Shown here: one piece after another, positions 34,630-39,619 of the stretch
How positions within the stretch are numbered: the first letter of the stretch is position 1
Layout: each line of letters starts with the position of its first letter
DNA from: Thermoflexibacter ruber
Lineage (GTDB): Bacteria > Bacteroidota > Bacteroidia > Cytophagales > Thermoflexibacteraceae
Assembly: GCF_900113045.1 (NCBI RefSeq)
Contig: NZ_FONY01000041.1
Span: forward strand, 5,309 to 46,075
Length of the DNA stretch: 40,767 bases
Reading direction: 5' to 3'
Program-made: the position numbers and the translations under genes
The notes under the pieces: model-generated
Databases searched by the model: none
What the model saw: only the letters and a program-made list of their open reading frames with translations
Told to the model about the DNA's origin: nothing

Positions 34630-35886
34630 ATGAAAAATAGAATTATCGCTAAATACCTGATTGAAACTGCTCACCCTGTCGAGAAAGCTGTAGCAGTGCT
34701 TGCAGGCGAGCAGAGCAGTGGCACTTTCGTAAAAGTTCCCGGTGAAACAGCCGAACTCACAGAAAAATACGGAGCTAAAGTAGAATCCATAGAAATCCTC
34801 GGTGAGAGTACCACCCCCTACCTAAACGATTCAAAACCTCCCAAAGGAGTTGCCCAAGCAATATTTCAAAAGGCAAGAATAGAAATTTCTTGGAATTATG
34901 ACAACGTAGGGGCAAACTTGCCTACCCTTATGGCTACCGTAGCAGGAAATTTGTTTGAGCTTTCTCAATTCTCAGGCTTAAAACTTCTTGATATAGAACT
35001 TCCTCAGACTTATAAAGCACACTACTCGGGTCCTAAGTTTTCCATAGAAGGTACACAAAAATTAGCAGGAGTACATCAAAGACCTATCATCGGCACTATC
35101 ATCAAGCCAAGCGTAGGGCTAAGTCCCGAGCAGAACGCAGAGCAAGTAAAAACTTTGATAGAAGGGGGAGTGGACTTCATCAAAGATGACGAACTTATGG
35201 CAGACCCTCCGCACTCCCCTTTTGAAAAAAGAGTACAATTAGCTATGTATCAGATTAATAAATACGCCGATGCCACAGGAAAAAAAGTGATGTACGCTTT
35301 TAACCTTAGTGGCGACTTGGACGATATGAAAAGAAGGCATGACATCGTACTCAAAAACGAAGGGACTTGCATCATGATGAGCTTGAATTGGGTAGGTATT
35401 TCCGCAGTGCATCAGATTTGCCAATTTACCCAACTTCCCGTACATGGACACAGAAACGGTTGGGGAATGTTTTATCGACCTGAGTTAATGGGAATGTCTT
35501 TTCCTGTGTATAAAAAAATATTTAGCTTAGCAGGTATAGACCACTTGCATACCAACGGATTGCGCAACAAGTTTTGCGAAAGCGATGAGTCTGTACTGAA
35601 CTCGATTCGCGCTTGCCAAAGCGAAGCAGGAGGTTCTTACAAGGTTATGCCTGTTATCTCTTCTGGACAGTGGGCAGACCAAGCCGCAGATACTTATGCC
35701 AAAGTAGGCAATGCTGACCTGATGTATTTGTGTGGAGGAGGTATCACTGCACACCCCGACGGCATTAAAGCGGGGGTAGAAAGTATCCGCATTGCTTGGG
35801 AAGAAGGTATGAAAGGCAATCAACTGCAAGATATTGCTCATAAATACCCTGTTATTCAAAAGGCTTTGGCATTTTATGGAAAATAA
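34630..35886 (+). CDS. RuBisCO large-subunit-like protein (form IV RLP)
   Basis: 418 aa with RuBisCO superfamily motifs 'IIKPSVGLS', 'GGVDFIKDDE' (carbamylated-Lys/metal site), 'PVHGHR' and 'GGGITAHP'. It is too short and lacks the loop-6 Lys context of a bona fide carboxylase. It is translationally coupled to a DUF1537 kinase. Confidence 0.85.
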   Translation: MKNRIIAKYLIETAHPVEKAVAVLAGEQSSGTFVKVPGETAELTEKYGAKVESIEILGESTTPYLNDSKPPKGVAQAIFQKARIEISWNYDNVGANLPTLMATVAGNLFELSQFSGLKLLDIELPQTYKAHYSGPKFSIEGTQKLAGVHQRPIIGTIIKPSVGLSPEQNAEQVKTLIEGGVDFIKDDELMADPPHSPFEKRVQLAMYQINKYADATGKKVMYAFNLSGDLDDMKRRHDIVLKNEGTCIMMSLNWVGISAVHQICQFTQLPVHGHRNGWGMFYRPELMGMSFPVYKKIFSLAGIDHLHTNGLRNKFCESDESVLNSIRACQSEAGGSYKVMPVISSGQWADQAADTYAKVGNADLMYLCGGGITAHPDGIKAGVESIRIAWEEGMKGNQLQDIAHKYPVIQKALAFYGK

Positions 35887-35887
35887 T

Positions 35888-37240
35888 ATGAACATGCTGG
35901 ATTTGACATTTTATGGAGATGATTTTACAGGCTCTACTGATGTCATGGAAGCCTTAGCCTTAGCACATGTACCTGTAGCTCTGTTTACTGAACCGCCTAC
36001 CAAAGCACAAATTCACGATTTTCAGTTTAAAAATACCTTCTTTTCTATGCAAAAATTGCGTGCTGTCGGCGTAGCAGGTATCAGTCGCAGTCTGAACAGG
36101 GAACAGATGCAAGCAACCCTTCCCGCCATTTTTGAAAAATTAGCTGCACTGAACGCCAAATTTTTTCACTACAAGGTCTGTTCTACCTTTGACTCCTCGC
36201 CCGGTATTGGAAGCATTGGGCAAGCTATAGACATAGCCTCTGAATACTTTGAAAGTGAACTAATACCGCTTTTGGTAGGTATGCCCAAACTCAACCGCTT
36301 TGTCGTATTTGGCAATCTTTTCGCAAGAGTACAAGAAACTACTTACCGATTGGACAGACACCCAACTATGTCTAAGCACCCTATTACCCCTATGGACGAG
36401 AGCGATATTTTGTTACACCTTTCCAAACAAACAAAAAAAGAAGGCTTTTTAATAGATGTACTTCAATTGGAAGATAGGCAAAAAAACCTCACACAACTTT
36501 TGGACAAAGCAAAGTCAGCAGGTAAAAAAATTGTCTTGTTTGATACGCTTTCTCCTACACATCTAAACCTGATAGGCAAAGGGTTAAATGCTTATTTCCC
36601 TACATCTAATCAGTTAATCGTGGGTTCGTCAGCAGTAGCCACCGCTTTATTTCCTGAAAAAGAAAATGAAGCACAAAGAGCAAAAACTGCCATTGGAAAA
36701 GCCAAAAAAATGATAGCGATGTCAGGGAGTTGCTCTCCCGTAGCCGCCGAGCAGATTTTATACGCCCAACAAATTGGGTTTAAAACCATAGCTATAGATA
36801 CAGTAAGGCTGTTAAATGAACAGGAAAGTGCCTCAGAACAAGAGCGTTTGATGCGTCTTGCCTCAGAAAGTAAAAATGATTATTTACCTATCATTTTTTA
36901 CTCGGCATTAGGTCCGAATGACCCTTCTTTGCCTTTGGTTAAACAAATTCCTCACGGGCAAGAGAGGCTACCAATTTTATTAGGCAAACTTTTGAAAGAC
37001 TTGGTTTTGCGTTACAAGCCAGACCGCGTCATCTCAGCAGGAGGCGATACCTCAGGCAAAATTACACGCCTGCTTGAAATAGATGCACTTGAGTTTTTGG
37101 CAGAGCTGACCGCAGGTTCTCCTTTCTGCCTTACTCATGCTCAGAGAAAAGAATTTGATAATCTTCAAATTGCATTAAAGGGAGGGCAAAACGGGAAAAA
37201 GTCATTTTACCAAGAGGCTTATGAAGGAGTAAAATATTAA
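35888..37240 (+). CDS. Four-carbon acid-sugar kinase family protein (DUF1537; OtnK/OiaK-like)
   Basis: The N-terminal 'MNMLDLTFYGDDFTGSTDVMEALA' and C-terminal nucleotide-binding 'SAGGDTSGKITRLL' are the two signature motifs of the DUF1537 kinases. The start ATG lies 1 nt after the RLP stop; the listed ORF begins at an upstream TTG inside the RLP gene. Confidence 0.8.
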   Translation: MNMLDLTFYGDDFTGSTDVMEALALAHVPVALFTEPPTKAQIHDFQFKNTFFSMQKLRAVGVAGISRSLNREQMQATLPAIFEKLAALNAKFFHYKVCSTFDSSPGIGSIGQAIDIASEYFESELIPLLVGMPKLNRFVVFGNLFARVQETTYRLDRHPTMSKHPITPMDESDILLHLSKQTKKEGFLIDVLQLEDRQKNLTQLLDKAKSAGKKIVLFDTLSPTHLNLIGKGLNAYFPTSNQLIVGSSAVATALFPEKENEAQRAKTAIGKAKKMIAMSGSCSPVAAEQILYAQQIGFKTIAIDTVRLLNEQESASEQERLMRLASESKNDYLPIIFYSALGPNDPSLPLVKQIPHGQERLPILLGKLLKDLVLRYKPDRVISAGGDTSGKITRLLEIDALEFLAELTAGSPFCLTHAQRKEFDNLQIALKGGQNGKKSFYQEAYEGVKY

Positions 37241-38111: not shown

Positions 38112-38122
38112 TTCTTTCCAAA

Positions 38123-39619
38123 ATGAAAACTTTAAAAGCTGGAAACTTAGATATTTTTTTAGACGAAACCCAACTCCGTTATATCCAATGCAATGGAGTG
38201 GAGATAGTCAGGGGAATTTACGCCGCAGTTCGCAATGAAAACTGGGATACTATTATTCCCAAAGTAGAAGTTGTTTCATTAAAAGAGGGAGAAGCTGCTT
38301 TCAAAATAGTATTAAATGCACTCTACCAGCAAGATGACATTCACTTTAAGGCAAGTTTGACCTATGAAGGCAAATCCAATAATGAAATAGAATGTATTTT
38401 TGAGGGAAAAGCATACAGTAATTTTAAAAAAAATAGAATTGGCTTTTGCGTGTTGCACCCATTGAGAGAGTGCGTAGGCAAAGAGATAATCATTAACGGT
38501 AGAGAGAAACAGACTTTCCCTGTCTTTATCTCTCCTCATCAGCCTTTTTCTAATGTGCAAAGCATGACTTGGTTTCCAATGGAAAATAGCCAAGCAGAAC
38601 TATTTTTTGAAGGAGAAATTTTTGAAACTGAAGACCAAAGGAATTGGACTGATGCCTCCTACAAAACTTACTGCACACCTTTGAGCAAACCTTTTCCTGT
38701 ATGGGTCACGGAAGGAGAAGAAATAAAGCAAAAAGTTGTTTTAAAATTACAAGTTTTTGATAATAAAGTATTTGCAGAAAAAAAAGCTCCTCACCTCCCC
38801 CAATTTCCTACAGAATTAGAGGAGATTCACACTTCCTTAGGTATGGGAATTTCAACGGACAAAGCCAATTTGAGCAAACAGGAAATTACATGGTTAAAAA
38901 GTACCAAAGTCGACCACCTAAGAGCGGATATTGAACTTTTTAATCTGAATTGGCAAGAGGAAATGAAAAGAGCAAGTGAACAAGCCAATACTTTGGGTTG
39001 GAAATTGGAGGCAGTGCTACATTTTAGCGAAAATTACAAGCAGGAAGCAAATGACTTTTTGAATCATACTCTTTCAATGTCAGCGAGTTATCATTCTATC
39101 TTATTGCTCAGATACCGTAAGGCTGGCTGGGAAACTACCGCTCAGCAATTTTTAGTTGATGCTTTTAGAAAGATTTTGCCTGAGGTAAAACTGGGTATTG
39201 GAACAGATGCTTATTTTGCAGAACTCAATAGAGCGAGTTTAGATATATCTAACATTGATTTTATAGGTTTTTCTATCAATCCCCAAGTTCATGCGTTTGA
39301 TGACCTTTCGCTGATAGAAACCCTTGAAGCACAAAAAGATACTATCCTTACCGCTAAGCAGAAATATGGCAATATTCCCATTTATGTTCACTCAATTACG
39401 CTCAAACCAAGGTTCAATCCCAATGCCACTAATCCAAATGAAACAGGCTATCCTCAATCTGATGAGAGACAAAGCAGTGATTTTTGCTATCAATGGACAA
39501 AAGCAAGCATAGGCATCTTGCACAAAGCAGGAGCGGAATCTCTTACTTATTTTGAAACTGTAGGTCGGCGAGGAGTCATAGATGGCGAGAAATTTCCTGT
39601 TTTTGAGGCATTTTGCTAA
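38123..39619 (+). CDS. Hypothetical protein, last gene of the RLP/kinase operon
   Basis: 498 aa, no signal peptide, no motif I can name. It starts 12 nt after the preceding gene. Confidence 0.4.
   Translation: MKTLKAGNLDIFLDETQLRYIQCNGVEIVRGIYAAVRNENWDTIIPKVEVVSLKEGEAAFKIVLNALYQQDDIHFKASLTYEGKSNNEIECIFEGKAYSNFKKNRIGFCVLHPLRECVGKEIIINGREKQTFPVFISPHQPFSNVQSMTWFPMENSQAELFFEGEIFETEDQRNWTDASYKTYCTPLSKPFPVWVTEGEEIKQKVVLKLQVFDNKVFAEKKAPHLPQFPTELEEIHTSLGMGISTDKANLSKQEITWLKSTKVDHLRADIELFNLNWQEEMKRASEQANTLGWKLEAVLHFSENYKQEANDFLNHTLSMSASYHSILLLRYRKAGWETTAQQFLVDAFRKILPEVKLGIGTDAYFAELNRASLDISNIDFIGFSINPQVHAFDDLSLIETLEAQKDTILTAKQKYGNIPIYVHSITLKPRFNPNATNPNETGYPQSDERQSSDFCYQWTKASIGILHKAGAESLTYFETVGRRGVIDGEKFPVFEAFC

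Follow-up and report, generated by a model that had tools for sequence, protein, structure and literature searches.

A compact four-gene cluster encoding a RuBisCO-like protein, a probable D-apionate catabolic module, in Thermoflexibacter ruber

RESULTS

The stretch of DNA analyzed here, called the window throughout, is 40,767 nucleotides (nt) of contig NZ_FONY01000041.1 from Thermoflexibacter ruber, a member of the Bacteroidota. The subject of this work is a set of four genes within it that encode a RuBisCO-like protein, a DUF1537 kinase, an oxidoreductase, and a 498-amino-acid (aa) protein and that may together constitute a module for catabolism of the branched acid sugar D-apionate. An earlier note, made from the letters of the window without database searches, had placed four co-directional genes at 34630-39619, and open reading frames (ORFs) are indeed found there, as follows.

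34630..35886, + strand: form-IV RuBisCO-like protein (RLP) of the OiaT/OiaX group, 418 aa
35888..37240, + strand: DUF1537 kinase, 450 aa (ATG start at 35888) or 448 aa (ATG start at 35894)
37254..38111, + strand: PGDH_C oxidoreductase, 285 aa (TTG start at 37254) or 283 aa (ATG start at 37260)
38123..39619, + strand: 498-aa protein, short-form ApnL homolog

The kinase start at 35894, two codons downstream, is the one called on a near-identical contig, L011. With the longest starts, the genes are separated by 1, 13, and 11 nt. Thus, the tight co-directional arrangement described by the earlier note stands, and its gaps of 1, 14, and 12 nt were miscounted by a trivial amount. The four genes are genuine and not chance ORFs, as each has thousands of homologs and their order is conserved in many genomes.

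Families of the four proteins

The first gene encodes a protein with both RuBisCO large-subunit domains (Pfam RuBisCO_large, PF00016, 4.1e-63; RuBisCO_large_N, PF02788, 2.7e-10). The KDDE metal/carbamate site, the HxH motif, and the GGG motif that had been read from the sequence earlier were all located, at residues 185-188, 272-274 (HGH), and 369-371, respectively. K185, D187, and E188 align with K201, D203, and E204 of RuBisCO, and the two domains together with the lysine-carbamate/metal site place the protein in the superfamily that includes form IV. Residues were numbered by alignment to a spinach RbcL sequence that carried the expected residue at all 21 catalytic positions. By that numbering, the RLP retains E60, T65, N123, K175, K201, D203, E204, H294, R295, H325, H327, K334, G403, and G404 but differs from RuBisCO in that K177 is replaced by S, H298 by W, and G380 by S. 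The three substitutions remove residues needed for carboxylation of ribulose 1,5-bisphosphate, a loss that sets form IV apart from forms I to III. Among NCBIfam models, the top match of the RLP was OiaX at 408 bits. The equivalog cutoff of that model is 700 bits, and thus the RLP is not an OiaX equivalog. The model for form III RuBisCO scored 220 bits (cutoff, 497), and the best match in the PDB was 3nwr (378 bits).

The second gene encodes a protein with the SBD_N (8e-49) and NBD_C (5.1e-25) domains of the DUF1537 architecture, a DDFTG motif near the N terminus, and a GGDT motif near the C terminus. Both the family and the two signatures had been recognized in the earlier note, and the Pfam domains bear that recognition out. 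The top NCBIfam model was OiaK (NF042436) at 367 bits, short of the 700-bit equivalog level. Scores were lower for the 3-oxo-tetronate kinase (OtnK) model (172 bits; cutoff, 350) and for the D-threonate kinase model (52 bits; cutoff, 450). The kinase is 38 to 40% identical to the kinases of the Rhizobium etli and Microvirga apiose clusters. It is likely a 3-oxo-isoapionate 4-kinase, OiaK, as judged from these matches.

The third gene had been thought to encode a divergent Rossmann oxidoreductase. Instead, the protein combines a Rossmann N terminus of the F420_oxidored type with a clear PGDH_C domain (PF16896, 8.7e-60) and matches PDB entry 5t57 over residues 1 to 271 (E = 9.3e-90, 304 bits). 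The protein in 5t57 was named D-apionate oxidoisomerase, apnO (bioRxiv 10.1101/2020.08.24.261826), and ApnO oxidizes and rearranges D-apionate to 3-oxo-isoapionate (PMC12994016). The window protein is also about 50% identical to the PGDH_C gene products of the apiose clusters on R. etli p42f and in Microvirga ossetica. Given both its domains and its closeness to 5t57, we assign it by homology as an ApnO homolog, that is, a predicted NAD-dependent D-apionate oxidoisomerase.

The fourth gene encodes the 498-aa protein, which had been held to belong to no recognizable family. It matched the NCBIfam model for ApnL (NF049900) at 1.8e-74 and 251 bits, below the cutoff of 750. The local copy of Pfam returned no match for it, and the Apionate_lact models are absent from that copy. 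A 92%-identical homolog from contig L011 (P0282), however, carries PF25837 (Apionate_lact_N) and PF25838 (Apionate_lact_M), and the same two domains are on record in 120 of 120 homologs among the matches listed, several of which were named D-apionolactonase by the Joint Genome Institute (JGI). The N and M domains can therefore be attributed to the window protein by way of P0282 and these homologs. The protein does not have the full three-domain length, as it lacks the C-terminal domain PF25839 carried by most homologs of 600 to 650 aa. It is 28% identical to Microvirga ApnL, which itself scores 899 bits on NF049900, above the cutoff. A search of PDB sequences gave no match for the 498-aa protein. 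In an AlphaFold2 model (predicted local distance difference test score, 92.7), a mutarotase-like N-terminal beta-sandwich is followed by a TIM barrel, and a fold search with the model returned only weak matches (template modeling score of about 0.28) to glycosidases with a mutarotase-like domain and a TIM barrel. The architecture resembles that of GH31-, GH36-, and GH97-like glycosidases, a likeness that describes architecture and gives no mechanism. We assign the 498-aa protein, on domain content, as a short-form homolog of ApnL, the D-apionate (D-apiono-1,4-lactone) lactonase.

Conservation of the gene set

A scan of GTDB species genomes found 80 loci with an RLP at least 51% identical to that of the window, and neighbors were counted within 10 kb of each RLP gene. 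The loci span Bacteroidota, Acidobacteriota, Chloroflexota, Verrucomicrobiota, and other phyla, and the nearest of them (RLP 74 to 75% identical) are in a Chitinophagales metagenome-assembled genome, Phnomibacter, and Ginsengibacter. The kinase gene lies directly 3' of the RLP gene at 69 of the 80 loci. An ApnO gene is a neighbor at 44, an ApsD-like (apiose dehydrogenase-like) gene at 29, an ApnL gene at 27, and a GH140 apiosidase gene at 16 of the 80. The exact order RLP-kinase-ApnO-ApnL was found again, for example, in Rhabdobacter roseus DSM 105074 and on contig L101, and metagenomic relatives with an RLP 72 to 80% identical to that of the window preserve the order RLP-kinase-PGDH_C. Around the module in those relatives, Pfam identified an apiosidase (GH140), Apionate_lact, a Gfo/Idh/MocA dehydrogenase, and sugar transporters. 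The Gfo/Idh/MocA dehydrogenase family is also the one that adjoins ApnL in proteobacterial apiose clusters. Examination of genome neighborhoods thus found the four-gene set to be syntenic in many relatives.

The best curated match of each of the four proteins is in the apiose pathway, namely, the OiaX, OiaK, and ApnL models and 5t57/ApnO. We conclude that the four genes in all likelihood form a compact D-apionate catabolic module, a Bacteroidota copy of the known D-apiose pathway. D-apionate arises by oxidation of D-apiose, a branched pentose of plants.

Other genes and other RLP-kinase pairs were seen at the related loci. In L004 (9195-10004), L006 (9002-9820), L033, L038, and L045, a gene for an AP_endonuc_2 protein (xylose-isomerase-like TIM barrel) lies directly upstream of the RLP gene and overlaps it. 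This gene recurs at these Bacteroidota apiose loci, gives no NCBIfam match, and has no counterpart in the window. Beside the RLP gene of L004 are FGGY and class-II aldolase genes, which were considered as pathway partners and set aside as ordinary AraB and AraD. Finally, many RLP-kinase pairs that are 51 to 53% identical to the window's pair (genome loci L065-L095) have no ApnO, ApnL, or ApsD gene within 10 kb. Two proteobacterial pairs lie beside TRAP transporter genes, one in Bradyrhizobium elkanii (L009, also with an SDR gene) and one in Pseudosulfitobacter (L013, also with a VOC-family gene). These sister RLP-kinase clades may act on other acid sugars.

Type of the RuBisCO-like protein

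Two kinds of RLP are assigned to the apiose pathway, OiaX and OiaT. In tblastn searches of plasmids, the window RLP was 38 to 39% identical to the four proteins of R. etli, Sinorhizobium meliloti, Marivivens, and Paracoccus that were named OiaX by the Prokaryotic Genome Annotation Pipeline (PGAP), and its identity to members of another proteobacterial clade reached 55%. A homolog search seeded with the Microvirga RLP, a member of that other clade, reached Xanthobacteraceae proteins and proteins named 3-oxoisoapionate-4-phosphate transcarboxylase/hydrolase by JGI. This Xanthobacteraceae/Microvirga clade, referred to as OiaT-named, is 52 to 54% identical to the window RLP.

In RuBisCO, CO2 is added at a site made up of E60, N123, and K334, and the roles of H327 and H294 are in hydration and cleavage. 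The OiaT-named clade is identical to the window RLP at 17 RuBisCO active-site positions, including E60, N123, and H327. By contrast, the four PGAP-named OiaX proteins have D60, G123, Q325, and Q327 where the window RLP has E, N, H, and H, residues that the window RLP and the OiaT-named clade have in common with true RuBisCO. Retention of E60, N123, H327, and the like would fit an enzyme that re-adds CO2 and hydrolyzes the product, and their loss in OiaX would fit a plain decarboxylase. The pattern extends to the related loci: all 77 full-length locus RLPs (77/77) have E60, T65, N123, K175, S177, K201, D203, E204, H294, R295, W298, H327, G403, and G404, and positions 379 to 381 differ in 9 of the 77.

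A neighbor-joining tree was built from Kimura-corrected p-distances with 200 bootstrap replicates. The OiaX proteins were monophyletic with the window RLP outside them (100%), and the OiaT-named clade was likewise monophyletic (100%). We think that the RLP is a 3-oxo-isoapionate-4-phosphate-processing enzyme of the OiaT/OiaX group, and its sequence identities and active-site residues favor the OiaT type.

Flanking DNA

Three features flank the module.

31168..33738, + strand: MVP-like gene, 856 aa, with MVP_shoulder and Vault_3 domains
33739..34619, + strand: insertion with a hairpin (33750-33782) and a Uma2 gene, recognized by blastn against L101 and by Pfam (Uma2), outside the pathway
39623..40600, - strand: gene for a PhyH-family Fe(II)/2-oxoglutarate dioxygenase, converging on ApnL

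A vault gene and a Uma2 gene had been reported directly upstream of the four genes, and Pfam identified both, the latter at 33775-34605. In L011 and L101, both close relatives, the MVP-like gene likewise precedes the apionate module, a pairing that is not conserved in more distant relatives. Contig L101 is about 80% identical to the window in DNA and has the MVP gene, the same four genes, and the PhyH gene, but no Uma2 gene. The Uma2 gene of the window is therefore an insertion. It takes the place of the 168-bp MVP-RLP intergenic region of L101 (6298-6465), which holds two hairpins and a TAtaTTTG box (Bacteroidota -7 type) some 35 nt 5' of the start of the RLP gene. The window and L101 become homologous again just 10 nt before the ATG of that gene. 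The hairpin at 33750-33782, with a 15-bp stem, lies 3' of the MVP-like gene, and the nearest upstream TAnnTTTG on the + strand is at 33900, within the 5' part of the Uma2 ORF. A scan for sigma-70 promoters and terminators, which does not cover Bacteroidota promoters, found the DNA to be no richer in them than shuffled sequence. The comparison with L101 suggests that the Uma2 insertion has deprived the module of its own promoter region.

On the other side, 3 nt with no hairpin separate the stop codons of the ApnL and PhyH genes. The position of the PhyH gene is kept in L011 and L101 and not in more distant relatives, and its weak top NCBIfam match is methylphosphonate hydroxylase (63 bits; cutoff, 500).

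Elsewhere in the window, a gene for a major facilitator superfamily sugar transporter (Sugar_tr, 8e-124) is divergent from a GH130 phosphorylase-family gene at 499-3137; this carbohydrate locus is distinct from the apionate module, which lies 31 kb away. At 9931-12852 (- strand), in a stretch of low GC content (0.34 to 0.36), is the gene for a 973-aa type IIL restriction-modification enzyme of the MmeI family; its domains are MmeI_N, the helicase spacer, the methyltransferase, and the TRD. The genes for two 7TMR-DISM sensor histidine kinases (21239-23386 and 26643-28802) and a TPR histidine kinase (23435-25450) form a cluster 5' of the module in an arrangement conserved in L011 and L101, with no evident link between the cluster and the apionate genes.

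DISCUSSION

How the module might work can be laid out step by step. We computed family membership, synteny, and the active-site residue pattern, and from there we infer every substrate and product. ApnL would hydrolyze D-apiono-1,4-lactone to D-apionate. ApnO, with NAD+, would oxidize D-apionate and migrate its hydroxymethyl group to give 3-oxo-isoapionate, which the DUF1537 kinase would convert to 3-oxo-isoapionate-4-phosphate. The RLP, with Mg2+ held by carbamylated Lys185 together with Asp187 and Glu188, would then cleave this beta-keto acid. If the enzyme is of the OiaT type, the released CO2 would be re-added, and the product would be hydrated and cleaved as in RuBisCO to yield 3-phosphoglycerate and glycolate. 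That the module acts on D-apionate is, in our estimation, very probable. That the reaction of the RLP is the OiaT-type formation of 3-phosphoglycerate and glycolate is the part of the proposal toward which we lean with less assurance.

The pairing of an RLP with a DUF1537 kinase had led the earlier note to the 3-oxo-isoapionate-4-phosphate routes of D-apiose catabolism, and the curated models and the synteny point the same way. The oxidative D-apiose/D-apionate pathway, reportedly described by Carter et al. in 2018, is said to consist of ApsD, ApnL, ApnO, OiaK, and an RLP (OiaX or OiaT). Homologs of four of these five core enzymes are encoded in the window by co-directional, tightly spaced genes in an order also found in many genomes. 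R. etli p42f and Microvirga have the same families in their apiose clusters, and the window ApnO matches 5t57. The host, however, is a member of the Bacteroidota and not a proteobacterium, the module has no adjacent ApsD dehydrogenase, transporter, or regulator gene, and its ApnL is short. Moreover, the window proteins are 28 to 50% identical to their proteobacterial counterparts and score under the NCBIfam equivalog cutoffs. A strain with an annotated proteobacterial apiose cluster grows on D-apiose (PMC11747546).

The earlier note had also argued that the usual partners of such a kinase were missing and that the substrate and chemistry might therefore be new. We disagree. The PdxA2-type enzyme and class-II aldolase that were missed belong to tetronate pathways, and thus their absence is no sign of novelty. 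In R. etli p42f and Microvirga, whose apiose clusters are annotated, the partners are the PGDH_C oxidoisomerase ApnO and the lactonase ApnL, and the pair of proteins taken as unfamiliar in the window appears to be just these two. In the tetronate pathways, attributed to Zhang et al. in 2016, the partners of the OtnK or DtnK kinases are reportedly PdxA2, OtnI, and OtnC, a decarboxylase of the class-II-aldolase family. The window kinase has the same two-domain DUF1537 fold, but PdxA2, OtnI, and OtnC are absent from the window, as expected for an apiose module. An OtnK-type tetronate pathway was considered and rejected, both for that absence and for the lower score of the kinase on the OtnK model than on OiaK.

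Several observations weigh against the D-apionate/OiaT-type assignment. The NCBIfam scores of the RLP, the kinase, and the 498-aa protein are roughly half or less of the equivalog cutoffs. No ApsD, apiosidase, or suitable adjacent transporter gene is found within the 40.8-kb window; if free apiose is the source, these functions must be encoded elsewhere. The OiaT label comes from JGI annotation names and taxonomy. In the tree, the window's Bacteroidota clade stands apart from both OiaX and the OiaT-named proteins (100%), and only 66% of bootstraps group the window RLP with OiaT apart from OiaX. The 17-residue pattern also occurs in the B. elkanii RLP, which is found in a non-apiose context with TRAP transporter and SDR genes, and thus the pattern does not fix the substrate. 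Finally, the OiaX clusters of Marivivens and Paracoccus also have no TIM and RpiB genes.

The last point bears on the best-surviving alternative, which keeps the same pathway but makes the RLP a simple decarboxylase of the OiaX type. The product would then be L-erythrulose-1-phosphate, to be converted to erythrose-4-phosphate by isomerases encoded elsewhere. A decarboxylase from Agrobacterium radiobacter K84 and a transcarboxylase/hydrolase from Xanthobacter autotrophicus have been characterized (PMC6302742). The window RLP and OiaX are of the same superfamily and have the same neighbors, a DUF1537 kinase and a PGDH_C oxidoisomerase, and OiaX is both the sole apiose RLP model in NCBIfam and the top match. 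Moreover, the window clade lies outside the OiaT-named clade rather than within it, and the two group with the modest bootstrap value given above. However, genes for TIM and RpiB isomerases accompany OiaX in the R. etli cluster, and we found no TIM/RpiB paralog of this kind in the window or at the related loci (0/80), which we count in favor of the OiaT type. Isomerase absence discriminates weakly, as adjacent isomerase genes are also lacking from some annotated OiaX clusters, those of Marivivens and Paracoccus. The Microvirga cluster and the window are alike in having no erythrulose-phosphate isomerase genes. The comparison of the window RLP with OiaT covered JGI-named proteins, and the window RLP is in a separate clade. 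Also against an OiaX-type enzyme are the low identity to the four PGAP-named OiaX proteins, the presence of E60, N123, H325, and H327 in place of D, G, Q, and Q, and a score far under the 700-bit cutoff. We regard simple decarboxylation as possible but rather doubtful.

A second alternative is that the module acts on a lactone or acid sugar other than D-apionate by new chemistry, with the RLP belonging to a third isofunctional clade. In its favor, none of the curated equivalog scores reaches its cutoff, the RLP clade stands apart, the ApnL is short and without its C-terminal domain, genes for ApsD, an apiosidase, and a transporter of the pathway are missing from the window, and sister RLP-kinase pairs occur in non-apiose contexts. 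In the nearest relatives (RLP 72 to 80% identical), however, the same genes lie between GH140 apiosidase, Apionate_lact, and ApsD-like genes. Moreover, the window ApnO is about 50% identical to the ApnO proteins of annotated apiose clusters and matches 5t57 at 9e-90, and each part of the module maps one-to-one onto the known pathway. A different substrate thus seems improbable. There is a slim chance that the RLP clade of the window, which at the loci sampled includes Bacteroidota and neighboring phyla and is separate from both OiaX and OiaT, is a third isofunctional group of apiose-pathway RLPs or that the module uses another branched or aldonic lactone; were either the case, the product spectrum would differ from those of the two known reactions.

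That the RLP is instead an MtnW/YkrW enolase of methionine salvage or a true CO2-fixing RuBisCO, set beside sugar genes by chance, is hardly credible: the protein is of the RuBisCO large-subunit superfamily with the metal and carbamate site retained, but it scores 170 and 132 bits on the MtnW models (cutoffs, 409 and 514, respectively) against 408 on OiaX, falls far below the form III cutoff, has S at K177 and W at H298, has no mtn, phosphoribulokinase, or small-subunit genes for company in the window, and lies in the tree far from the MtnW of Bacillus velezensis and from the RuBisCO sequences, which fall outside the RLP clade.

The assignment that we prefer, a D-apionate module with a probable OiaT-type RLP, would make the chemistry of the window an already known one. 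The differences here are the phylum of the host, the divergence of the proteins, the short ApnL, the stand-alone arrangement, and the distinct RLP clade. There is a value for annotation, as the curated models miss all four genes at the equivalog level in Bacteroidota. The resulting names, "RuBisCO large subunit family protein," "four-carbon acid sugar kinase," "PGDH C-terminal domain protein," and "hypothetical protein," are open to misreading as CO2 fixation or as novelty. The assignment also poses a biochemical question for a large RLP clade, that is, whether its members re-capture CO2 like OiaT or simply decarboxylate like OiaX, and positions 60, 123, 325, and 327 (E/N/H/H versus D/G/Q/Q) offer a testable sequence marker of the OiaT/OiaX split. 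Apiose is a signature sugar of pectic rhamnogalacturonan-II and of apiogalacturonan. As apiose is found in plant cell walls, the module would mark T. ruber as an organism able to feed on the cell-wall debris of plants or aquatic plants.

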